The position numbers and the translations under genes are program-made. From positions 128,001 through 192,000 of the forward strand of contig DXJO01000010.1 in NCBI GenBank assembly GCA_019057475.1: a DNA stretch of 64,000 nucleotides. Direction: 5' to 3'. Source of the stretch: Candidatus Thorarchaeota archaeon (GTDB taxonomy: Archaea > Asgardarchaeota > Thorarchaeia > Thorarchaeales > Thorarchaeaceae). The notes beneath the pieces were generated by a model. The model did no database searches and was not told the origin of the DNA. It saw nothing but the letters and a program-made list of their open reading frames with translations. Of the stretch, positions 535 to 59,919 are shown piece after piece (position 1 is the stretch's first letter; each line of letters opens with the position of its first letter).

Positions 535-1785
535 TCAGCCATCATTCCCCTCGTTTCTCTCAGAGGACAACCATGAACATCTGGAGCCCGCCAATAGCAC
601 CGCGATGTAGCCAAGAGTGATGATGAGCGCTTGGACAATCCTCATGTCCGTTTCAGACAGCACACCCCTGACGGTAGTGAAGACGTAGACTGAAACCGCC
701 CAATTGCCCACGCTGTCTTGGGCGTACACATGAAGCAGATGTGGGCCGTTCTCCGAAGGTAGGGTGAGGTTGTAAGGCGCTACAAGGGTTATGTTCGTTC
801 TCATATCCCACCGACATACTACCCGAAATAATCCACTGACATCGACGATCGACAAGTTAACCATTGTATCCGGATCGTGAGTTGTACCGTTGGCTGGGCT
901 GTTCAGTGTGATGCTTGGCCCTGTGTCATCCACAGTGAATGTATAGGTCACGTGAGCTTGGTTCCCTGCCATATCCCATGCATAGACATCGATTGTGTGA
1001 AGACCGTCGCCCGCTGGCAAGGCCGTATCATATGGGCTGAGGAGGGTTGTATTGGTGTTTCCATCCCAACTTGATATGACTTCTGCAAGACCTAGCTGGT
1101 CCTCCACATTCAGATTTACTATGGTGCCAGACCTGTGAGCTGTGCTGCTTTGGGGGTTCGACAGGAATACTGTGGGACTGGTGTCATCTGTAACAAATCC
1201 GAATCTTTGGCCAGACCAATTTCCAGAGCCACCTTGGGCGTAGATGAAAAGCTCGTGTGGTCCATCGCCCACAGTCAGTTCGACATCGTAGGGGGCTGCG
1301 AGAGTATGAACTCCCCCAGTATCCCAATTGAATATGACTTGAACTACACCAGAAGCGTCGCTGACCTCAAGATCAATCATAATGCCCGAATGATGCATAC
1401 TGCCATTCTCTGGATAGACCAGCACGATGCTTGGGCCAGTTTCACTGGCAGAAACCGAGGATGTTTCTTCGCCACTGCCTATGGATTGATTCTGTTGGTT
1501 GGAGGTGGAAACATGGTCTTCAATGGGAGATGAGATACGGAAATCCCCTGCCTTTAAATCAGCATTCCTTCCGATTTGTGGGGGTGCTATCACCTGCAAT
1601 GCCATAGGTTCCTGGTGGATTGCACGCGTGTTTGAAGCTGGTGATTCCGAAGAAATACCACTCTCGTGCATTGTGGGAACCACGGAGTATGGAAGGGTAT
1701 AGGCGGAAGACAACGGGCAAAGAACCAAAGGCAATAGCAGAACAAGCATCCCAATCCCGGCGATTACTCTGGCGTTTGATGTCAA
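535..1785 (-). CDS. Secreted/cell-surface protein with three tandem Ig-like repeats and C-terminal membrane anchor
   Basis: Signal-like N-terminus, Ser-rich linker, three ~85-aa repeats (P.i.l..P.ng..h.sg..v.l.v.D.sG...V...WD....tL.aPY...Lp..dG.H.l.vYA.D..GN), C-terminal hydrophobic helix. Confidence 0.75.
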   Translation of the reverse strand: MTSNARVIAGIGMLVLLLPLVLCPLSSAYTLPYSVVPTMHESGISSESPASNTRAIHQEPMALQVIAPPQIGRNADLKAGDFRISSPIEDHVSTSNQQNQSIGSGEETSSVSASETGPSIVLVYPENGSMHHSGIMIDLEVSDASGVVQVIFNWDTGGVHTLAAPYDVELTVGDGPHELFIYAQGGSGNWSGQRFGFVTDDTSPTVFLSNPQSSTAHRSGTIVNLNVEDQLGLAEVISSWDGNTNTTLLSPYDTALPAGDGLHTIDVYAWDMAGNQAHVTYTFTVDDTGPSITLNSPANGTTHDPDTMVNLSIVDVSGLFRVVCRWDMRTNITLVAPYNLTLPSENGPHLLHVYAQDSVGNWAVSVYVFTTVRGVLSETDMRIVQALIITLGYIAVLLAGSRCSWLSSERNEGNDG

Positions 1786-2086
1786 GCAGGCTTTACCTCC
1801 CGATTTGCCTTAAAAAAGGACTGCACAACTAAGAATCTTTCTGTATGCTGATTCGGGGAAGGCTGCTGGATTTGCCCGCAGCGCGGGTGTGGTCATGATT
1901 TCTTTTGTTCTGATGTGGGTTCGTGTAATCCTCTCTCGGACTGATGCGATTTCGTTCGGGTTTCCGATGGTCTTCCTCCACACTGACAATTAGGCCCAGT
2001 CATGCTTATATCTGGGTAAACTTCAGAAATGGACCGTACAAACGACACAGACTATGAGGACATAATCCCTTACTGAGGCGAATGGA

Positions 2087-3415
2087 ATGAAGGTCATGAT
2101 AATCGGAGCTGGTTATGTGGGACTTACGATGGGCGTGGTCCTTTCAGCCACACACGAAGTTACGCTCTTGGATGTCGATGAAGACAAGGTGAAAGCCATT
2201 AACGAAATGAAATCACCAATCCATGAAAAAGGCATGTCTGATCTACTCACCCGGGGCATTTCAGAAGGACGCCTGAGGGCAATGACGCCGGATGAGGTTC
2301 TGGGTCGTCATGATATTGTGCTCATATGCGTCGGGACACCATCATCCTCAGATGGATCAGTTGACCTGAGCTACGTTGAGAGTGCCGCCACCATGGTTTT
2401 AGAAAGAGCCAATGAAATCTTCTCCAAGTACTGCGTCATTGGAATCAAGAGTACAGTTCCTCCTGGGACCACAAGAAGACTTGTGCTTGAACCTCTGGAC
2501 CGGGATGGATTCACCCATAGGGCTGGAGCTGCTTTCAACCCCGAGTTTCTGAGAGAAGGGTCCGCGATTGAGGACGCACAAAAACCCGACCGCATTGTGA
2601 TAGGTGCAAGTGATGCGAAGGCGTCAGAACTGGTGAAGCGCATGTACGAGGAATGCTTGACTAGAAACAGTACGGCATTCGTAGAAACATCTCTGGAATC
2701 AGCTGAACTATGCAAGTATGTAAGCAACAGTTTTCTTGCCTTGAAAATCTCTTTTGCAAACGAGATTGCTAACATTGTGGAGAGAATCCCTAGCGCAAAC
2801 TTCGCAGAGGTAATGATGGGGGTTGGATTGGACAGCAGGATTGCGCCTAGTTTCTTTGGTGCCGGCGCTGGCTACGGCGGTTCATGTTTGCCAAAGGATC
2901 TATCCGAGCTAATCCACCTGGCTCAGCATGACTTGAGCGTCGAAACTCCAATTCTGAAGGCGACACAACGAATCAATTCAGAAAGACCCCGGAAACTTGT
3001 TGACATGCTATTGAGATGTATCCCTGATGTTCATGGTGTAAAGATTTCTGTGCTAGGCTTGGCTTTCAAGCCCGAAACAGACGACATCCGCGAGTCGCCC
3101 AGTCTGAGCGTGATAGAAATACTCCAGACTCTTGGGGCAAAGGTCTGGGTTCATGACCCACTTCTCAACGAGATGCAACTAGATGACGAATTCATGAACT
3201 CCGTTACAGCAGTTGATGATCTTGACATTTGTCTGATAAACGCCTCTGGGTGCATTTTGATGACGAACTGGGAGAATTATGCGAATACAGGATTGGACGG
3301 CTTGACAAGACTTATGAAGAAGAAGATTTTTATCGATGGTCGAAGAGCATTCGTGAACGACAGCATGCCATCTGATGTTGTCTACATTGCTGTGGGGAAA
3401 CATCCTGGTTCGTGA
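2087..3415 (+). CDS. ugd: UDP-glucose/GDP-mannose 6-dehydrogenase
   Basis: GAGYVG, CVGTP, KSTVPPGTT, NPEFLREG, GYGGSCLPKD, LGLAFKPETDDIRESP motifs. Confidence 0.93.
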   Translation: MKVMIIGAGYVGLTMGVVLSATHEVTLLDVDEDKVKAINEMKSPIHEKGMSDLLTRGISEGRLRAMTPDEVLGRHDIVLICVGTPSSSDGSVDLSYVESAATMVLERANEIFSKYCVIGIKSTVPPGTTRRLVLEPLDRDGFTHRAGAAFNPEFLREGSAIEDAQKPDRIVIGASDAKASELVKRMYEECLTRNSTAFVETSLESAELCKYVSNSFLALKISFANEIANIVERIPSANFAEVMMGVGLDSRIAPSFFGAGAGYGGSCLPKDLSELIHLAQHDLSVETPILKATQRINSERPRKLVDMLLRCIPDVHGVKISVLGLAFKPETDDIRESPSLSVIEILQTLGAKVWVHDPLLNEMQLDDEFMNSVTAVDDLDICLINASGCILMTNWENYANTGLDGLTRLMKKKIFIDGRRAFVNDSMPSDVVYIAVGKHPGS

Positions 3416-3444
3416 AATGACTTCAGAACCTCTTTACGTAGGAA

Positions 3445-4413
3445 GTGCAAACACTGAGGGCAATAATACCAGTCGCCGGGAATGGATTACGCTTACGTCC
3501 GATTACTGAGTTGAAACCGAAGGTCCTCATCGAGGTTGCAGGCCGACCTGTTCTGGACCATATCCTCCGGAATCTTGCGGAGAGTAAGATCGACGAACTG
3601 GTGCTTATTGTGGGGCCCATGAAGAAGTTGGTAAAGGAATGGGCTGAGAAACTGTACGGTGACAGGTTCGCCCTGCGATACGTGAAGCAGGATAAGCAGT
3701 TGGGCTTGGGGCATGCGATCTACTGTGCGAAGGACTTCCTCGAAGGCAATGTACTGATTACTCTGGGAGATGAGATATTCTCCAGAAGCTATTCCTCGAT
3801 AATTGTATCAATGGGCTCTAACAACGCCGACGCAGCAATAGGAATTAAGGAAGTTGATGACCACCGTCACTATGGTATGATTAGAGTTGACAAAGACAAC
3901 ATTGTCACTGAGATGGTGGAGAAGCCACTGGAGTTTGATGGACGACTGGCTATTGCCGGCGTCTACTACCTGAGTGAAGCGTCACAGTTGAAGAAGGCTC
4001 TGGAGCAGACAATGAAGAAACGTGGCGTCGGAGGCGAGTATCAGCTCACTGATGCCCTTCAACTCATGGTTGAAGGTGGTATTCGCTTTTCGACTATCTC
4101 GGTAGGAGAATGGTATGACTGTGGCCGCCTTGAAACTTTGATGTCTAGCAATCGTCGTCTTCTAGAGAGAAGCCATTACGTGGATGAATCCGCGTACATT
4201 CTGAACTCTGAGATAATCGAACCCTGTTACATTGGTCCGAACACGAGAGTAGTCAACTCAAAGATAGGCCCCAATGTGTCCATGGGTGCAGGGGCATCGC
4301 TCGAAAGCTGTACACTTCGGGATTCGGTGGTCGAAAGCGGCACAATTGGAGCTGGCTATAACATTCGACAGTGCATTTTGTCCGGTAGTAAACTCCTTGG
4401 GTCAAACAGCTAA
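3445..4413 (+). CDS. Sugar-phosphate nucleotidyltransferase (glucose-1-phosphate thymidylyltransferase-like)
   Basis: AIIPVAGNGLRLRPIT...PK, QLGLGHA, EKP, GEYQLTDAL, WYDCG, and a C-terminal beta-helix-like tail. Confidence 0.88.
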   Translation: MQTLRAIIPVAGNGLRLRPITELKPKVLIEVAGRPVLDHILRNLAESKIDELVLIVGPMKKLVKEWAEKLYGDRFALRYVKQDKQLGLGHAIYCAKDFLEGNVLITLGDEIFSRSYSSIIVSMGSNNADAAIGIKEVDDHRHYGMIRVDKDNIVTEMVEKPLEFDGRLAIAGVYYLSEASQLKKALEQTMKKRGVGGEYQLTDALQLMVEGGIRFSTISVGEWYDCGRLETLMSSNRRLLERSHYVDESAYILNSEIIEPCYIGPNTRVVNSKIGPNVSMGAGASLESCTLRDSVVESGTIGAGYNIRQCILSGSKLLGSNS

Positions 4414-4423
4414 CGAGTGTTCC

Positions 4424-4486
4424 TCATAGCAGGTCGCTGACATGGAACACACCCACAATGTTTGTTTTTCCTTTTACATTCAATGT
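4424..4486 (-). repeat. Displaced remnant of pyruvate kinase 3' end (left island boundary)
   Basis: Reverse strand encodes TLNVKGKTNIVGVFHVSDLL*, versus pyk C-terminus TRNIEGKTNIVGVFHVRDLVE*. Confidence 0.85.
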
Positions 4487-4657
4487 CTATCCTTTTCATA
4501 CAATGAATTTCCTCACAAAGAAATGGAATTGACATCATCGTGAAATTCATGGGATATCTATCAATAAAGAAACTGGGAGCGGTAGAAAAGGCAGTTCATT
4601 CATGTTTTCGAAGAAGTCCCTAAGAGTTCAATTGCATGCATTTGCCATGAGATACGG

Positions 4658-5469
4658 GTGGTTGAACACATCCATCTTACAGCTGAACGGATAGCCAAGT
4701 ATGCCGCAGTCATTAGAAAGCACAAGCCACGTATTGTGGTATGCTATGCTTCATGTCTATACTTGTCTGCTGAATTCCTAAGAACTGAAAGCATAGAGAT
4801 TCCATGCCCACAGGGTGTTCAAAGCAGTGCTGAGATGCTTCATGACTGGCAACTGTCTGCAATAAGTGCACAGTTCGAGTGTCCGGTTATGACAGGTACG
4901 GATGTAGAGAGGTAGGCGACATTGTCCACGAGTGTTCAGCTCATGATGGACTACATATTTCGCAAGAACTGATGCACGTAGAAGTACTGAAGGATGGTGA
5001 ATCCACAGCCTATGGGGAAGAGGGTGATATAGTAATTACATCCTTCGCGAACTACGCTTTTCCATTCATTAGATGCCATATCGGAGATTTCGGTGTGCTC
5101 CTTGATCCCGATGATTCATGCACATGTGGAAGAAGTTTCATTAAGATGTCACCTAAGGTTGGACGAAGCACCGACATTTTTCACTTCGAAAACGGACTTA
5201 TTGTTCATGGTAAATTTTTCACCCATCTATTCTACGACGCTCTCTCAGTTCGTCAGTTTCAAGTAGTTCAGAAATCGTATTCTAAAATTGAAATTAGGAT
5301 TGTACCCTCAAACTCCCTAGATGATGTCTCAGTTGGTCCGATTACTGAGGTGACACGTCAGAGTGTAGGATTACCAATCGATGTGGACTTTGTATTCACT
5401 GACAGAATCAAACCATCTCCTACTGGGATGCATCGCTTTGCAGTTTCCGAAGTTAAGCCATTGTTATGA
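4658..5469 (+). pseudogene. Phenylacetate-CoA ligase/CapK-like adenylate-forming enzyme, 5'-truncated and frameshifted
   Basis: Two overlapping ORFs (..YASCLY..SSAEML.. and YDRYGCREVG..EC..H..G...ITSFANYAFPFIRC.IGD..GRSTD) form one CapK-type protein; the N-terminus is missing. Confidence 0.75.
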
Positions 5470-5562
5470 TCCCATTCGGGCGGCGAGTAGATAGTCATCT
5501 TTGGACATACAAATGCGGGGTCGTGCAGTATCACTCCAAATCGCCAATACTGGTTGCCAGAC

Positions 5563-7197
5563 TTAATGATTCTGTTGCAGGGGTTCATCACTTCCGGCGC
5601 TAGAATTCACAAGCGATAATACCATCCTCTCGTATTTCAAAATGGGGCCTATAGCGAGGTTTATCCCTCTCATGGCTCCTAACGCACCATCAAGAATTCT
5701 AATGTCCTGATCTCTCACTGCTCGAGTTAATGGCAACAGGGTCAAGTAGAAAAGAATGAACAATGAAAAACCTGCAATCACCGTTGCCACGTAGTGCATC
5801 TCAACCAGTTGGTTGAGCAGGAGTATCATCACTGCCGCGATGCCTGAGCTCAGATAGATTCTGCCCAAGCTCAGGAAATCATATTTCAAATGTAACTGCT
5901 GCTTGCCTTTCCAGAGTCCAACAATGCAGGCTAAGAGTGTGGATACAAAATGCGCGGCGATGAGACCTTGCCCTCCAGCTAGTGCCGTAGAAATGAATCC
6001 AAGAGGCAAGAAAGCTACCACGTAGACGACATAGAATAGCAATGTTAGGGTATTCTTCCCAACGCCGCTGAAGAAACTAGTCAAGACACCATTCCCAAGT
6101 CCTACAAGTAGGAACACGCTGGAGAAAAGGGTCAAATACATTGATGCTGTAGCATATTCGCTTCCGTACAGAAGAAGTATGATCTCTTGGGACATAATCA
6201 TGAATATGGTTGCTGCAGGAACGATTACTAACGCGACATAGCGATGAGCCATTGCGAAGGCGCGACTGATGTCGGAATCTCCTGACAATGTACTGACTCT
6301 CGAGAAAGCTGGGAGCAACGCAATAAAGAGAGGAGCGGAAACAGCTCGTAGCAAAGTGGAGATGTTTACTGCAACACTGAAGTTTCCCACATCAACATCA
6401 GAGCTGAATGCTGCCAGAAGTACAAGCCTATATTGAATGGCAAAAGCTGCGATAATGGTTACGGCGTAAAGCGGAAGACCAAAGATCATAATCAATTTCG
6501 TATAGTATGTCTTGTTTCGCCCTTTGAAATTCACTTCTCCGTATTTCTGGAGTTCCTTCGCAAGCAAAGCTATAGAAATCACTCCTGTGACAACATAGGA
6601 AAGAACGAATCCAGATATGGCTCCAAACATCTCTAGACCAATAAGTATTAAGAAAACGGACATGCCTGCTTTCATGGATGCTTGGAAGATTCTGATGAAC
6701 CCACTCCATGAGGGTTTGTCCAGGCTCTGGAGTGCAAAGAACGCCACCCAGAATAAACCCTCGAATGCAACAGCAATGCATGAGAATGCTATGTATGGAG
6801 CTAGTGATGGCCTACCAAGTACAGCTTCTGCAAACAGGCCAGACAGTAGGAATCCTGTGATAGAAACAAAGGCAACGATAAGCAGCCTTAGAAGGAGTCC
6901 CACTCTGAGGGTCCTTAGCGCTTCCTTGTCATTTCCTTCTGCACGCATCTTTGGAACATATCTGACTAGTGCGATATCTATTCCAAAGATCGAGAACGAG
7001 AATAATAGTGAGGGCAGGACAAGTGCCAGACTATACTGAGCATATAGAACTGGGCCAAGCAGTCTTCCAACTAGTATTGTGCCTATCCCGTTGACAATGG
7101 TAGCCGTAACCATACCAAGCACAAGGGAAGTTGCGCCTCTAATCGAATCCTCTGCAAGGTCGGTTAGATTCTCGTTCGTTGGATTTACCGCACTCAC
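5563..7197 (-). CDS. Polysaccharide flippase (Wzx/MOP family)
   Basis: About 14 hydrophobic segments; RLLGP..Y..YSL, G...ALVRY and LLPAFS motifs. Confidence 0.88.
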   Translation of the reverse strand: MSAVNPTNENLTDLAEDSIRGATSLVLGMVTATIVNGIGTILVGRLLGPVLYAQYSLALVLPSLLFSFSIFGIDIALVRYVPKMRAEGNDKEALRTLRVGLLLRLLIVAFVSITGFLLSGLFAEAVLGRPSLAPYIAFSCIAVAFEGLFWVAFFALQSLDKPSWSGFIRIFQASMKAGMSVFLILIGLEMFGAISGFVLSYVVTGVISIALLAKELQKYGEVNFKGRNKTYYTKLIMIFGLPLYAVTIIAAFAIQYRLVLLAAFSSDVDVGNFSVAVNISTLLRAVSAPLFIALLPAFSRVSTLSGDSDISRAFAMAHRYVALVIVPAATIFMIMSQEIILLLYGSEYATASMYLTLFSSVFLLVGLGNGVLTSFFSGVGKNTLTLLFYVVYVVAFLPLGFISTALAGGQGLIAAHFVSTLLACIVGLWKGKQQLHLKYDFLSLGRIYLSSGIAAVMILLLNQLVEMHYVATVIAGFSLFILFYLTLLPLTRAVRDQDIRILDGALGAMRGINLAIGPILKYERMVLSLVNSSAGSDEPLQQNH

Positions 7198-7420
7198 ATC
7201 TCCATTTCTAGTCTTAAGCCGCAGCTCGGTTTCTTGCTGGTTCAGCTCTCCTCCTTATTATGATTACCTCGCAAGTCAATCTAATGCTACCGAAACATAC
7301 TTCTGACAAGGAGGTGCGGAACCTGAAATGCCACTGTTCAACGGGCATGTGCAATCCTACTGAACACTCTCCATCCTCCACACAACTCAGGTTCTGTGCA
7401 AACATGACCCTGGAAAAGGG

Positions 7421-7561
7421 CTTCTGCTTCCTGAGCTACAAATTAGGGAGTATGTGATAGTGCATTTGGCCTATGCCATCGAGAAGATGAAGTCAATGGA
7501 AGCCAAGAAGACACTAGCACTCTTTGAAGAGATGGCGAAGTTCGCAGAAGAAACTGAATAG
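7421..7561 (+). pseudogene. hypC: Remnant of hydrogenase maturation chaperone HypC (C-terminal half)
   Basis: Manual translation LLLPELQIREYVIVHLAYAIEKMKSMEAKKTLALFEEM resembles HypC GDYVLVHxGxAI.K..EEEA..TL; no MCLAIP N-terminus in frame. Confidence 0.55.
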
Positions 7562-7618
7562 ACCTGGAGTTTGATTGTAGAAAATGGGCAGATGGATCTT
7601 TGGAGAATAATTCATTAG

Positions 7619-8119
7619 ATGAAGCCAATGGTGGAGGTCATGCGACGATTTCGTCCAGAGCTGCTCAAAGGACTCACTGTACTTTGCATCTTCTTTACCG
7701 TGATAGTTTCCACAGAACTACTCCTGCCTTATCCAATTGAACATGCCCGATACACGTCTATTGACATCAGGAAAATCATCCAGAATCCCATTCCCTTTGA
7801 AGGACATGAGATATCGTCGGCTGCAACAGTTTCTACAGTTATCACCAATGAGTCATTTTCTATAGCTGAGGTCGCGGAAGGAGTCATACTAGTTTTCTCT
7901 TCTTCAGTTGGTCATCCAAGAGAAGGCGACAGAGTCATGTTCCGCGGCACTTCCTGGATTCATTTGAACAACTCAATTCTGGTACACGAGTTCTACACGC
8001 TAGACTACAACAGCTCGTTAATTCGCTCCATTCCTGGAATCCTCTTGTTCTTGGTGATGTTTTTCACAGTCTTCACGATAGACCTCAATCGTCTGGCATT
8101 TGTGACCCGGAGGCGCTGA
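7619..8119 (+). CDS. Membrane-anchored hypothetical protein (possible OB-fold)
   Basis: N- and C-terminal TM helices flanking a beta-rich domain (P.EGDRV.FRG). Confidence 0.6.
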   Translation: MKPMVEVMRRFRPELLKGLTVLCIFFTVIVSTELLLPYPIEHARYTSIDIRKIIQNPIPFEGHEISSAATVSTVITNESFSIAEVAEGVILVFSSSVGHPREGDRVMFRGTSWIHLNNSILVHEFYTLDYNSSLIRSIPGILLFLVMFFTVFTIDLNRLAFVTRRR

Positions 8120-8120
8120 A

Positions 8121-8621
8121 ATGCCGGACGTGTTTACGCACTTCCTAGTCGGTGTGTCAATTGCACTACTTGTGCGCAAAGACGGCAGCAGGGCAGAACG
8201 GATGCTGATAATCTTAGGTGCGGTCTTGATAGATATTGAACGCCCATTCTCATGGTTACTCGCAAGTACTGAGTTCTATTGGATTGGACTGACCCCAGCG
8301 TTTCACTCCATATTAGGGGCTGTTTTCCTCTCCTACTCTGCAGCTGCCTGTTTCGATTTGGAGCACACCACTTTCAGGGAGCGGGTCAAGCTGATTCTCA
8401 TTGGTTGCACAGTTCATCTCCTACTGGACATGACAATGTATCCCTGGGAGGAGCGTGGCCTCTATCTTCTTTATCCTCTCAAAATCACGTTTTCATTCAA
8501 TCTTCTTTGGCCAGACTTCTGGTGGCTTCCTGTGTTTGGTATAGCGAGTCTTCTTGTTGCCTTGGGCATTAGATACCTGATGACTCTCACTCAGTCAAGT
8601 AAGGCAGAACGCGATTCGTAG
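8121..8621 (+). CDS. Membrane-bound metal-dependent hydrolase (YdjM-like)
   Basis: MPD.FTH, GA.L.DI, FHSI, HLLLD and G..LLYP motifs. Confidence 0.8.
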   Translation: MPDVFTHFLVGVSIALLVRKDGSRAERMLIILGAVLIDIERPFSWLLASTEFYWIGLTPAFHSILGAVFLSYSAAACFDLEHTTFRERVKLILIGCTVHLLLDMTMYPWEERGLYLLYPLKITFSFNLLWPDFWWLPVFGIASLLVALGIRYLMTLTQSSKAERDS

Positions 8622-9214
8622 ACACTTTCTGTTTGTTAGAGGCACGGAGTCTGAAGAGGTATGGCATGATTCCAAGGGCGACCTTTCACGAAACCTCGTC
8701 ATTTGGCCTTCTGTTCTCAATGATTCTCGACTTGCCAGACCGAGATTGACCTGACAATGATGGATTCACCAGAACTCCCTTCGATAGCTATCCGGAATTC
8801 CCCATAGTAACCTCACCTATGATTATTCTGTTGATGCGGCAGTATCATACACTGTCACCAGCCGACAATGTCCGGAAACCTGTGCCCTAGTTACTGAAGA
8901 CTTCTGACTCCCATACTAACATTGCCTGAAACAGGTGTTGATGTGAAAGCAATACTCAGGCAAAAGGAGTGGGGTGGTGCGAATCTCCTTGTGCATCTCA
9001 ATGGCCCTAATCCGCTCGTCAGCTTTTCTTGCAAACATTGGCGGGCAGGGGATTCCCGAAACATGTATCCGAGCGGGCATATCAACGAACGCGCTACATG
9101 TTTGCTCCATTCCTCGTTTCTCCCACGAAGACTTAAGAGATGTGGGCATACGTAATGGGGATGCGCAAGGCCCCAGTTTCAATGAAAAATGGGGGTACCA
9201 CGGAGGTTCGTTGA

Positions 9215-10348
9215 ATGAGGGTTGCCCATATTTGTCCCTTTGTAGGAGAGCAGATGGGTGGCAGCGAAAGATATGCATGGACTCTCGCGAAGAAACAGGC
9301 GAAAGAATATGACGTTCATGTATACACGACCACTCAAAACGCTAGACGTACAGGAACCATCGAGTCAAATGGTGTGACAATCCACCGATTCTACAGCCCA
9401 ATTGTTGTGTGGAACATCAACCCAATCAGTCTGATGCTTAGGTCACTTGTAAACTCAGATATCGACCTATTTCACATTCATTCGTACCTCTACACACCCT
9501 CGAACCAAGCCGTGTTCGCCAAGATAGTCAAAAAGAAGAAGGCCCTTCTGCAGTTACACGGTGGCATTGGGCTGCCACCGTACAAGACATGCTGGGTCAA
9601 GCTTGCTGCGAAGAAGTTCTATGACGTATCTCTTGGCAAGTTCATGATGAATCATAGCGATATAATCGCATCAGTGTCCAAGTCCGACCTAGATGCAGTC
9701 GAATCCCAGTTCTCTATTCCAAAGGGCCGGCTGCGTTACGTGCCGAATGTCGTAGACACCTCTGTTTTCAAACCCGAAACGAAGCAGCACTCGAATGGAA
9801 GAACACTGCTGTATGTAGGTGATTTGGAGCCCTGGAAAGGCGTTTGTTCACTGATGGAGTGGATGCGTGCTCAGAGTCGGTGGGATGGAGGCAATATCAC
9901 AGTGCGTTTTGTGGGTCAAGGCTCGTTGCTCAGTCGCCTTCGAAAGATGCAGCGTGAGTTTCAGAAAGACAGGCAAGATGTTCGCATTGAGGTCCTGGGC
10001 CCGAAAGACCACAGTGAAATACCTACGCTCATGAGGGACGCTGATGCATTGATACTCCCCTCCTATTGGGAAGGAATGCCAACTGTTGTTCTCGAGGCCA
10101 TGGCGTCTGGAACGCTTGTAATATCGACTCGTGTCGGTAACATACCTAGAATGATTGAACATCTTGGCACGGGCTTGTTGATTGATAGATCAGCTGCCAG
10201 TTTTCAAGAAGCAGTATCCACGGTTCTCTTTGATGTGAAAGCTGTGAGGCGCATCACTGAGAATGCAAGGAAACTGGTTGAGCGGGAGTTCAGTCTTGAC
10301 AAGGCCAACCTGATTCTACATGGTCTATACTCGGAGATGCTGGAGTGA
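9215..10348 (+). CDS. Glycosyltransferase family 4
   Basis: GGSE, VPNVVD, LPSYWEGMPTVVLEAMASG. Confidence 0.92.
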   Translation: MRVAHICPFVGEQMGGSERYAWTLAKKQAKEYDVHVYTTTQNARRTGTIESNGVTIHRFYSPIVVWNINPISLMLRSLVNSDIDLFHIHSYLYTPSNQAVFAKIVKKKKALLQLHGGIGLPPYKTCWVKLAAKKFYDVSLGKFMMNHSDIIASVSKSDLDAVESQFSIPKGRLRYVPNVVDTSVFKPETKQHSNGRTLLYVGDLEPWKGVCSLMEWMRAQSRWDGGNITVRFVGQGSLLSRLRKMQREFQKDRQDVRIEVLGPKDHSEIPTLMRDADALILPSYWEGMPTVVLEAMASGTLVISTRVGNIPRMIEHLGTGLLIDRSAASFQEAVSTVLFDVKAVRRITENARKLVEREFSLDKANLILHGLYSEMLE

Positions 10349-44905: not shown

Positions 44906-45034
44906 TGAAGCGATAACGCTACCGTCTTATCTCTTGCGTGTCACGCCGTCAGACTTATGAACCAAGCTCATTGCCTCGTATCAATCAACCGATTAACTGC
45001 TAGACGCGGGCAGGGATGTCTGATGATTTCACAA

Positions 45035-45222
45035 CCGTTCATTGTAAGTTGGACAAACTTTGACAGGGAGTCTTTGTCCTCCCAAGAGCGGCACTGGGAA
45101 TATACTCCTTGAGGTCATTTTCCTGTCATTCAACCTCAAGAAACAGTGTCATGATTTGAGCATATAAGGTCGTATTCGAAAATGTCCAATATCATCCAAG
45201 TTTTGAGCAGCTGTCTGCAACC
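45035..45222 (-). mobile_element. Miniature non-autonomous element B sharing both ends with the tnpB element
   Basis: rc 45183-45222 aligns ungapped with tnpB-element left end 57588-57627; rc 45035-45097 matches tnpB-element right end 59860-59919; GG at both junctions. Confidence 0.85.
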
Positions 45223-52066: not shown

Positions 52067-52346
52067 GGCATGCAACAGCTGCCAAGAACTTGTACAATCC
52101 TGGACATTTTGTAGGTGTTTAAAACATACTGTTCAGGATTGAGTGGTGTGGATGTTCAATGCAGATTGCTAGGACCTCCATGCGATTTGGTCGCCGCCAG
52201 TTGGACGGAGACAGAAAACGCCTGTGGAGAGGACGTGAGACTTGTCGCAGATCCAGTAGGATCTGCAGAGCAGACCTCAATGAATCAGGAACCGAACATC
52301 AGTCAAGGACATTGCTGTCCAAGATTGTGCAAGTTTCGGGCAACGG
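52067..52346 (+). mobile_element. Miniature non-autonomous element C with the same end architecture
   Basis: Left end 52067-52106 and right end 52316-52346 align ungapped with the ends of elements A and B and are imperfect inverted repeats of each other; GG at both junctions. Confidence 0.78.
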
Positions 52347-57587: not shown

Positions 57588-59919
57588 GGTTGCCAATAGC
57601 TCCAAGAATCTTGGACAGACTTGGACACTTATTAGATAGTCGTCTGATGAAACACTTTTTGTGGAGTTTGAATTCTATTGCTGTTAGCTATTATAGCCCT
57701 AATTCTGTATGAGTTAATATTCTTCATCTAGGACCACGTTTTGAGGTAGTGGTTGATGAAGTCAGAAAAGCGGCGTCGTCCCCGCTCGTGCAAGACACCC
57801 GAGGCATCGAAACAGAAGACAATGGACGCCAACTATTATGGCTCTTCATCAACTACTTACCTTGTAGAGTCCTTTGCCCTGAACTCCTGTCAACGCGAAG
57901 TAGCACGAAAGGGAAGGGGCAGAGAACCCGACCCCGCGTACAGACGAGACAGGGATAGTTGGACACAGCAGCTAGTCAGTGTAGCAAGAAAGTGTGGGAG
58001 AAAGGTCGACGACATAGACCTAGCGACTCTCACTCTACATTTTGATAACTATGTCAAGGTTGTCAATCTCATCCTCTCACGGATATACCGGACGGATGGC
58101 CGCGCACAGACACTTGGGGAATCACTCTCGAAGTATAGAGGCAGAGCTTACACTCTGCTAAGAGAGCAGAGAGACCTTTGCTATCAACACAATGATGAAT
58201 ACAAAGAACTAGTGTATGAACGACTTCATCGAAATGCGCTTGAGCATGCCGGCAGAACACTGTTGGCTGATTGGACGCGGAGGCAACTCTTCAATGCTGC
58301 GATCAATCTGCTTCACGGGTCACATGATGATGCTCTACGACTTCTGAGAAGAAAGAATATTCCCTCGGACTTGATTCGAAGATTGCGGGACAGTTGCAAT
58401 GCAGTGAAGAAGAATGGTTCCGGATATCATTACGCTCTTAGTGTTCTAAGGCAGATTCGTCTTACTCTTGATAGTCATATTCTAGATACTCTCAGTATCA
58501 AGATCAGTTGGCGTGGAAGACAGAGGAAGAAGGTGTCTTCCTTACTTGCAAAGGGGTCTCCAGACTTTCAGTATGTCGAGAACCTTGTAGAGAACGAGCT
58601 CCGGAGCTGGGCAAAGAATGGATACTCTTTCACCGTCCCGCAACTAAGAAGCCTCAGTCTTGATTTCAGCGCAAGCACTGAGAACTCCATAGGTCAGGGA
58701 TACTGGTTCACTATTGATTCAGAGAGAGAGAATGAGATCATGCTGCACCTTAAGCTTCCTCCGGGGATAGATGGAAGAGAACACAGTGATTCCCCCTACA
58801 AGTCAAAGACCCTGACCTTCAGATTCCTTGACTGGTTGCCAAGAGCTGCGGCAAAAGATGCTGATAAGGCAAACAGAGCTGAGGAGACCGGTGACTATCA
58901 TCGAGGTGACCAGTTGAGGTTCAGAGCTGCAAAGTTCTCAGACATGCATGAACAACTCATGAACACCATTCAGTTCCAGCAGGTGGTTCATAGACTATCA
59001 AGGCTGAAACAAAGGAAGAGGAGTGATTCTACAGAGATTGCAGACCTAGAAGCAAACGCCCAGAGACTCAAGAGCTCCCGACGGAGTGCTCCTCCAAGAC
59101 TTCTCTTGAGAGGGCAGAGGGTCATCCTCCAGATTCCCTTTCTCTCGCCCAACGGTACAGTGAGCTCCAGAGTCCTAGGAGAGAGAGAATACACGACCAA
59201 GGCAGGAGCTGATAGGGGATTAAGAGTACCAGTTGCCCTCTCGGTTGAGAAAGACACCGAGTATGTAGACCTGTACATATCAGTAGAGTCCCTCATTGCG
59301 AAGAGGATGACACTGAGGAAGAATGCGTCGGTCCTACAGTCAGAGGTGGACAGGAGAAGAAACAACTGGGAGCGAAAGCGGCCCGGACAGACTTATCCCC
59401 GGTTCCTCTTCAAGAAGATGAGGCATCTGGAAGCCACATGGAAGAAGGTACGTCGTCTCGACCGCGAGATTGCTCGCATTATTGCATCAAAGACAGTGTG
59501 GTTCTGTGAAGGCCATCGGGTGAAGAAGGTGTTCTTCGAGGACCTGCGGAGCTTCCAAGCTAAAGGTGGTCTTAGGGACCTGTCGTGGTCGCTGAATACG
59601 AACCTGTGGGGAAAGATCATCGACACGGTCAGATACATGCGAGAGTCTCTTGGTCACTCACCCTATAGTGTGTGGACTGTGAACCCGCGGTACACTAGCC
59701 AGACATGCCATGTCTGTGGCGAGAGAGGTGTCAGGGTTGAGAATGAAACCTCGAAGACAAAGAAGAAGGGAGGAGAGTACTTCTATTGCGAAAAGTGTGG
59801 TTCTCATTTTCACGCTGATATAAACGCAGCAAGAAACATAATTCATGTTCAACCAAGATCCAGTGCCGTTCCTGGACGGACAGCTTGATGTCCAAGTTTG
59901 TCCAAATTACAATGAACGA
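57588..59919 (+). mobile_element. Element A: IS607-like, transposase-less element carrying a giant TnpB-like nuclease
   Basis: Inverted TTGGACA-N3-TTGGACA ends (57611-57627 / 59889-59905, 16/17 match); ends shared with elements B and C. Confidence 0.82.
57753..59888 (+). CDS. tnpB: RNA-guided RuvC nuclease, TnpB/Cas12f-like, 711 aa
   Basis: RuvC-I GADRG, RuvC-II FFEDL, VNPRYTSQTCHVCG...CEKCG zinc ribbon, RuvC-III HADINAARNI. Confidence 0.9.
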   Translation: MMKSEKRRRPRSCKTPEASKQKTMDANYYGSSSTTYLVESFALNSCQREVARKGRGREPDPAYRRDRDSWTQQLVSVARKCGRKVDDIDLATLTLHFDNYVKVVNLILSRIYRTDGRAQTLGESLSKYRGRAYTLLREQRDLCYQHNDEYKELVYERLHRNALEHAGRTLLADWTRRQLFNAAINLLHGSHDDALRLLRRKNIPSDLIRRLRDSCNAVKKNGSGYHYALSVLRQIRLTLDSHILDTLSIKISWRGRQRKKVSSLLAKGSPDFQYVENLVENELRSWAKNGYSFTVPQLRSLSLDFSASTENSIGQGYWFTIDSERENEIMLHLKLPPGIDGREHSDSPYKSKTLTFRFLDWLPRAAAKDADKANRAEETGDYHRGDQLRFRAAKFSDMHEQLMNTIQFQQVVHRLSRLKQRKRSDSTEIADLEANAQRLKSSRRSAPPRLLLRGQRVILQIPFLSPNGTVSSRVLGEREYTTKAGADRGLRVPVALSVEKDTEYVDLYISVESLIAKRMTLRKNASVLQSEVDRRRNNWERKRPGQTYPRFLFKKMRHLEATWKKVRRLDREIARIIASKTVWFCEGHRVKKVFFEDLRSFQAKGGLRDLSWSLNTNLWGKIIDTVRYMRESLGHSPYSVWTVNPRYTSQTCHVCGERGVRVENETSKTKKKGGEYFYCEKCGSHFHADINAARNIIHVQPRSSAVPGRTA

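Follow-up and report, generated by a model that had tools for sequence, protein, structure and literature searches.

In PMC10691335, which cites Altae-Tran et al. 2021, stand-alone omegaRNAs are described for bacterial IscB/IsrB/TnpB loci, where they were tested experimentally and work in trans. Gene-less PATEs, as seen in Geobacillus, often encode omegaRNAs that need TnpB in trans (PMC10055086), and the archaeal PATEs of Haloquadratum are gene-less IS200/IS605 derivatives formed by core deletion (PMC3119063). On the IS607 side, TnpB was reported to maintain its element by cutting empty sites, and the omegaRNA of the CboIStron is also functional when supplied in trans (bioRxiv 10.1101/2023.11.20.567912). 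A homing model has been published for the TnpB proteins of both IS605 and IS607 elements (PMC10055086; bioRxiv 10.1101/2023.11.20.567912).

We analysed a window of 64,000 nucleotides from the genome of a Candidatus Thorarchaeota archaeon, which contains a 183-bp gene-less element of IS607 type, hereafter called element B (45035..45217, minus strand). Our main reading, to which we assign a probability of roughly 0.6, is that B is a non-autonomous IS607-family mini-transposon acting as a mobile, promoter-bearing omegaRNA gene. Most likely, it relies on an RNA-guided nuclease whose gene lies at another place in this genome. The initial annotation had taken the region for a stand-alone guide-RNA gene, and comparison with related copies supports this: a TATA box at conserved distance, a predicted start at the foot of a hairpin, a covarying scaffold of ~105 nt (close to the ~110 nt estimated earlier) and a copy-specific flank. 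These features are more than chance, judging by their repetition at constant spacing and by their recurrence in many other genera with compensatory base changes.

The three B-type copies of this genome, 87-89% identical, align across the whole span, from GGG then TTGC... to ...AACGG, and differ beyond it. The range proposed earlier (45015-45180) held the right features within misplaced borders: since the mobile unit is 45035-45217, that range took in 20 nt of flank and left out the left terminus, 37 nt long. A search with 1.3 kb spanning the locus showed that in four congeneric genomes (G001, G004, G005 and G006) nothing separates the two flanks; the empty site reconstructed in the initial annotation is thus found in nature, the sole difference being one base before GG. 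When the filled site is compared with these four orthologous empty sites, the left junction reads GGG then T, the right end ...AACGG, and there is no target duplication, only GGTTG being common to both junctions. B is a recent, precise 183-bp insertion at GG, and its GG-core insertion without target-site duplication is that of an IS607-type element. In the congeners, B-type copies occupy other loci. Minus-strand frames inside B reach at most 36 aa, all with a TTG start and of chance length, in agreement with the earlier remark that it has no sense-strand ORF; too short for a protein and present in many copies at different loci, B is a MITE.

The same insertion geometry, again without duplication, is found for a related copy of a second type (type 2, described below) on contig C40, which has a paralogous empty site in the same genome. 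In that unoccupied site (G000 C40:330-470 vs C40:76280-76600), GGG is followed by 17/18 bases of the predicted guide of the type-2 mini-element, making it a potential self-target if the system is active.

The left end of B (45180..45217) combines a CAGCTGC word with two TTGGAYA-like subterminal repeats, which are the inverted counterparts of TGTCCAA words at the right end; these subterminal words are probably recombinase binding sites. The left-end plan is also found in the type-2 copies, in element A of the same window (from 57588) and in a recombinase-bearing element of another genome (G034:C24). There, a B-like left-end plan is followed by a 200-aa serine recombinase with MerR-HTH and resolvase domains, a remnant of an A-type nuclease and the core. 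The ends of B are therefore common to an element with a MerR-HTH serine recombinase (TnpA), as in IS607, and a similar arrangement is seen on contig C53 of the present genome. We base the IS607 assignment on the GG junctions without duplication together with the like left end of this recombinase-bearing element. The present genome has two serine recombinase genes, one apparently shortened and the other in an element with different ends; no Y1 transposase was found in it. The serine recombinase element on C19 was considered as the mobiliser of B and rejected, its ends being different from those of B.

The C53 locus (L127, G000 C53:1-9400) carries a 177-aa MerR-HTH serine recombinase (742-1275), an A-type nuclease (6995-9286) and, on the opposite strand, a 1822-aa open frame (1344-6812) without a Pfam match. 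A recombinase-nuclease gap of 5-6.5 kb, as in this locus, recurs in two other genomes (G025 and G066), and the arrangement suggests a larger cargo-carrying transposon. The 11 bases 3' of its right end repeat the first 11 bases after the left-end GGG.

Type 2 is represented in this genome by 13 copies of ~190 bp, with the same plan as B and a different sequence; TATA box, hairpin and scaffold keep a constant spacing throughout the 3 B-type and 13 type-2 copies. With a covariance model built on the core (76 nt), we found 25 matches in this genome, only 4 of which adjoin nuclease genes (element A, its paralogues on C53 and C54, and a partial gene on C39), and gene-less copies stand to nuclease genes at about 5:1. 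The model matches 27/36 other genomes of the archaeal family to which this one belongs, the maximum being ~70 cores per genome, and 0/24 genomes outside the family; the top match of a genome is almost always a gene-less element of ~190 bp. Among 66 such elements, the left junction is GGG in 57, suggesting GGG as the predicted target motif (TAM), and the first flank base is T in 54. Eight genomes of the family are without both core and nuclease and most core-bearing genomes also have the nuclease, with the reservation that draft assemblies may conceal copies and that related genomes are no independent samples. In three genomes (G016, G018 and G012), 51-70 cores coexist with an A-type nuclease gene that persists as short or stop-interrupted fragments only, pointing to a spread independent of the nuclease, as far as draft genomes that may miss copies allow.

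Several loci depart from the common pattern. The right flanks of a B-type copy (G000 C9:3856-3896) and of a type-2 copy (C51:31064-31104) are near-identical over 40 nt, and both end in AACAG, not AACGG; either the two copies would be located in two copies of another repeat, or their flanks would have been exchanged. On contig C39 (76537-76740, minus strand of G000), an orphan right end without H1 has a decayed TATA region joined directly to an A-like coding tail, and seems to derive from a nuclease-bearing element by simple deletion of its core. The window itself contains a third gene-less element, element C (52067-52346), whose left end is related, whose interior differs and whose right end reads ...GCAACGG; it is probably the carrier of an RNA belonging to another type of TnpB.

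Read on the minus strand, the predicted RNA opens with hairpin H1 (45108..45140), whose stem is kept by two-sided changes across genera. This is the 8-bp hairpin of the initial annotation, with arms at 45108-45115 and 45133-45140, and it starts 21 nt after the TATA word. It is followed by stem-loop S2 (45080..45099), which has a covarying stem and the loop UGCCGCUC in B, and by stem S3 (45051..45079), in which GGACAAA pairs with UUUGUCC and GC is replaced by UA in type 2 and other subfamilies. The single-stranded tail (45035..45050) ends at the transposon boundary and varies little or not at all across all 20 cores of this genome and the 48 mini-elements. Two long-range pairings tie the 5' module to the core, their 3' strands being both enclosed by S3. 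The first, PKa, joins the GGAGU linker (45104..45108) to ACUCC inside S3 (45067-45071) and encloses S2, with compensatory changes in 4/6 pairs. The other, PKb, joins the GACAY word of the H1 loop (45122-45127) to RUGUC beside that ACUCC (45062-45067), with two-sided changes across genera; its end pair varies between CG, GC and UA. Finally, a pseudoknot between the S2 loop and the terminal AACGG, PKt, is conserved without compensatory change.

In the 20 cores of this genome, S2 and S3 are 91% paired, compared with 21-45% when the partners are slid; the pairing survives GC-to-UA and UA-to-CG exchanges, and RNAalifold recovers both stems. The whole scaffold, with its six helices H1, S2, S3, PKa, PKb and PKt, was tested on 48 gene-less elements from more than a dozen genera. 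Over 32 pairs, 93.2% of 1510 cells are paired (35-47% when slid), two-sided changes occur in 12 pairs and 0/500 shuffles reach the observed value, in a setting where the structure was derived from the same sequences that test the helices and these are mutually related sequences. The B rows are one column off in PKa of this alignment, and in the MAFFT alignment A1 H1 is misaligned between subfamilies, hence its exclusion from counting. Except for PKt, the scaffold thus presents the conserved pseudoknotted structure with covariation that characterizes an omegaRNA. The strand bias of the mini-elements is modest, with 58 G-U pairs against 43 A-C mismatches; this excess being too weak alone, we read the strand polarity mainly from the TATA box and from homology. 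An Rfam 15 scan of the whole window matched no family at the gathering threshold.

The TATA-like word read by the initial annotation on the minus strand is present as the reverse complement of 45162-45169, and we regard it as the predicted internal promoter of B. In 50/66 mini-elements, an octamer resembling TATA is found 133-135 nt away from the right end, within divergent surrounding sequence, and the stretch from TATA to H1 differs among subfamilies. The usual archaeal TATA-to-start spacing is ~25 nt, which places the predicted start at the foot of H1 and sets the length of the predicted scaffold. In one subfamily (G016; L033, L088 and L091), the elements are gene-less and without H1; their TATA box is located 31 nt before S2, so that the predicted RNA is the core alone, and this 70-nt core may by itself be sufficient as an RNA. 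A scan for sigma-70 promoters and terminators was set aside as uninformative for an archaeon.

Element A encodes a 711-aa TnpB/Cas12-like nuclease (57753..59888, plus strand) with a RuvC D-E-D triad, a zinc finger and a match to Pfam Cas12f1-like_TNB at E = 1e-15. This nuclease is ~300 aa longer than a typical TnpB. Alignment with solved TnpB/Cas12f-like chains covers the catalytic motifs and the zinc finger but is confined to the last ~230 aa; the N-terminal part of ~480 aa has no match in structure-chain searches. The right-end RNA core of element A, made of S2, S3 and the tail (59848..59919, plus strand), overlaps the last nuclease codons and scores 70 bits with covariance model R1. We recover the conserved scaffold named in the initial annotation, with 45036-45097 of B 79% identical to 59860-59918 of A. 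The last ~70 nt of the B scaffold match right ends behind intact TnpB-like genes of 711-766 aa. As in omegaRNAs, the right-end scaffold is hence homologous to an RNA overlapping the 3' end of tnpB and stops at the boundary, both in 4 A-type genes and in the gene-less copies. Nuclease A is our candidate trans partner for the predicted B RNA, their compatibility being assumed.

Loss of RNP formation through the loop mismatch (CGCTC vs GAACG) had been raised as a possible objection. The B variant of the S2 loop (C for U) also adjoins intact nuclease genes of 712-733 aa, among them that of the G005 orthologue of A, 92% identical; the mismatch is therefore natural variation and unlikely to disable the RNA. 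The type-2 variant of S3, GUAC, is found behind no nuclease gene of this genome. The nuclease-linked copies have S2, S3 and the tail in common with the gene-less ones, and coding sequence where H1, PKa and PKb would be; no supported counterpart of these three was found in them. A hairpin upstream of S2 in the nuclease-linked copies, in the A-D-x-N-A-A codons, was tried as one and rejected, as it is broken in 6/17 and one wobble-position pair varies. With the 5' module missing there, the RNA of the mini-elements cannot simply be equated with the RNA native to the nuclease.

The predicted guide of B is its flank at 45015..45034 (minus strand), outside the element, where the initial annotation had also noted a word after the scaffold, namely the reverse complement of 45018-45034. 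The flank is identical to the right half of the congeners' empty site, and each copy has a different one. It spans the original start codon region of a nuoJ-like gene, which in four congeners begins at an ATG equivalent to 45022, four codons before the insertion point, giving a protein that starts MISQPFEF.... In this genome, the insertion parts the native ATG from the gene, and an ATG in the left end of the element (45182-45184) restores the frame (MSNIIQVLSSCLQPFEF...). B is located between this gene and a divergent epimerase gene, toward which the predicted RNA points. The native start region being now beyond the element, the predicted RNA would be antisense to the new nuoJ-like leader; by position, this agrees with the antisense relation to the nuo leader proposed earlier. 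Such repeats of ~190 bp, up to ~70 per genome, need masking or labelling in annotation, since they change gene starts, as for the nuoJ-like gene.

A role of the elements as mobile promoters was considered and is unsupported, the orientations of the copies relative to neighbouring genes being mixed. For many type-2 copies, an upstream open frame of the same direction stops right before the element, for example at C6:9119-9304, C45:55534-55719, C51:31105-31290, C51:75585-75770 and C54:61069-61254. Several type-2 left ends start with TAG or TAA, and the element may provide or substitute the stop codon of the gene at its landing site.

We now propose a cycle for B as a mobile omegaRNA gene. It is modelled on the published homing of IS605 and IS607 TnpB (PMC10055086; bioRxiv 10.1101/2023.11.20.567912) and on the trans activity reported for stand-alone omegaRNAs (PMC10691335). 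Transcription would start at the foot of H1, ~25 nt downstream of the TATA box, and proceed through the scaffold and the right end into the flank; this read-through would yield an RNA whose guide is ~17-20 nt of flank. A TnpB-like nuclease from element A or a paralogue would bind the RNA in trans. Excision of B by a recombinase, also supplied in trans, would leave a restored site composed of GGG and the guide sequence. This site would be cut and then repaired from a copy still carrying B, so that the mini-element would be retained at the expense of both recombinase and nuclease.

Other readings of the same data have to be weighed. The conserved words and symmetries could all be recombinase sites and transposition signals of a mini-element that functions as DNA only, with no functional RNA. 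IS607 recombinases work on double-stranded ends and require no internal hairpins. TGTCCAA at one end is the inverse of TTGGACA at the other, as expected for recombinase sites, and 50-70 copies are present in some genomes that have no intact nuclease gene. However, all six helices, three of them long-range, hold through two-sided changes, some of which fall outside the repeated words, and the distance of the TATA box is fixed despite divergent surroundings; we find an element without RNA decidedly unlikely. Alternatively, an RNA would be made without being a homing guide, and would serve as a decoy that titrates the nuclease, or would regulate its neighbours by antisense or read-out, being antisense to the nuoJ-like leader and in sense towards the epimerase gene. 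The 5' module private to the mini-elements and missing from nuclease-linked copies, the 5 to 1 excess of gene-less copies over nuclease genes in this genome and the position of B between divergent genes, with its RNA overlapping a new leader, are compatible with this. The scaffold nevertheless always ends exactly at the boundary with an invariant tail, as a guide-bearing RNA must, the copies have mixed orientations relative to neighbouring genes, and published stand-alone omegaRNAs guide effectors (PMC10691335), so we consider such a role doubtful.

The partner of the RNA could also be a nuclease other than A, for example one of the TnpB-like proteins of ~400 aa or ~570-600 aa of this genome. 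In it, at least 12 further open frames score above the cut-off for the TnpB zinc-ribbon domain, and nothing behind the A-type genes corresponds to the 5' module. Yet the core model matches only A-type right ends and gene-less elements and no other TnpB locus, and core and A-type nuclease largely co-occur (eight searched genomes are without both), which leaves another partner very unlikely. Scarcely plausible is the proposal, made in the initial annotation, that the dispersed mini-elements act as a scattered repertoire of guides, here for defence against viruses and plasmids. There are many different guides per genome, and stand-alone omegaRNAs add target sites according to a published discussion (PMC10691335). 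Each guide is nonetheless the element's own chromosomal flank, and that of B has neither another site in the genome nor an exact match in viral contigs when searched together with GG; the element region is without a match in the plasmid collection, and we see no mechanism by which guides would be acquired. Further genomic targets of the guides occur in about the number expected by chance, apart from the paralogous empty site at C40:403. The core pattern has two matches in viral contigs, both due to chance and without stems. For these guides, a selfish homing role fits better than a repertoire.

More speculatively, the gene-less elements would be an old, separate lineage of guide-only parasites and not decayed leftovers. 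Their private domain (H1 and the two long-range pairings clamping the core) and their own promoter would give them an advantage in loading over the RNA native to the nuclease, a single Asgard TnpB-like enzyme of ~710 aa thereby serving tens of mobile guides. We hold this view to be unlikely. If true, it would offer a natural split between effector and guide, in parallel to the passage from transposon RNA to free-standing CRISPR guides.

Returning to B as a mobile omegaRNA gene, its interest would lie, provided that the RNA is made and loaded, in a clear archaeal case of an RNA-guided nuclease and its guides residing on separate mobile elements. The guide element would have its own promoter and an RNA domain missing from the nuclease's own RNA, and would be an example of a parasite on a parasite, exploiting the recombinase and the nuclease of other elements. 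It would also supply a compact scaffold of ~105 nt and a predicted GGG motif for an uncharacterised Asgard TnpB-like enzyme of ~710 aa, while a dated insertion with known empty sites would make a substrate for a homing test.

How does B compare with the systems described so far? The partner nuclease of element A has RuvC motifs and a zinc ribbon in common with solved TnpB/Cas12f chains, the best being 8hr5_A, followed by Cas12f and ISDra2-like chains, at E = 7e-6 at best and over the last ~230 aa only. In the literature searched, we found no IS607-type Asgard form with a fixed-distance promoter, a private 5' module bringing two extra long-range helices and a partner of ~710 aa. With the CboIStron, B shares a serine-recombinase transposon, a pseudoknotted guide scaffold at the right end and the proposed cutting of empty donor sites; there, the RNA is located within a nuclease-bearing element with a group I intron, whereas the RNA of B travels alone. 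PATEs are likewise short, non-coding and trans-dependent, keep both ends and outnumber their parents, and the orphan right end at C39:76537 resembles their formation by core deletion. They differ from B in their Y1 hairpin ends, TAM-adjacent insertion and single-strand chemistry, B having IS607-type ends, GG junctions and a link to serine recombinases. Closest are the stand-alone omegaRNAs: mobilised copies of a scaffold without effector or transposase gene, with their own flank as guide, in genomes that have effector loci. In contrast to these bacterial, experimentally tested RNAs, B is IS607-type and archaeal, has a TATA promoter at fixed distance and an extra 5' module, and is predicted from sequence. 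Altogether, the kind is already known from stand-alone omegaRNAs and from PATEs with omegaRNAs, and B is an unusually elaborate form of it.
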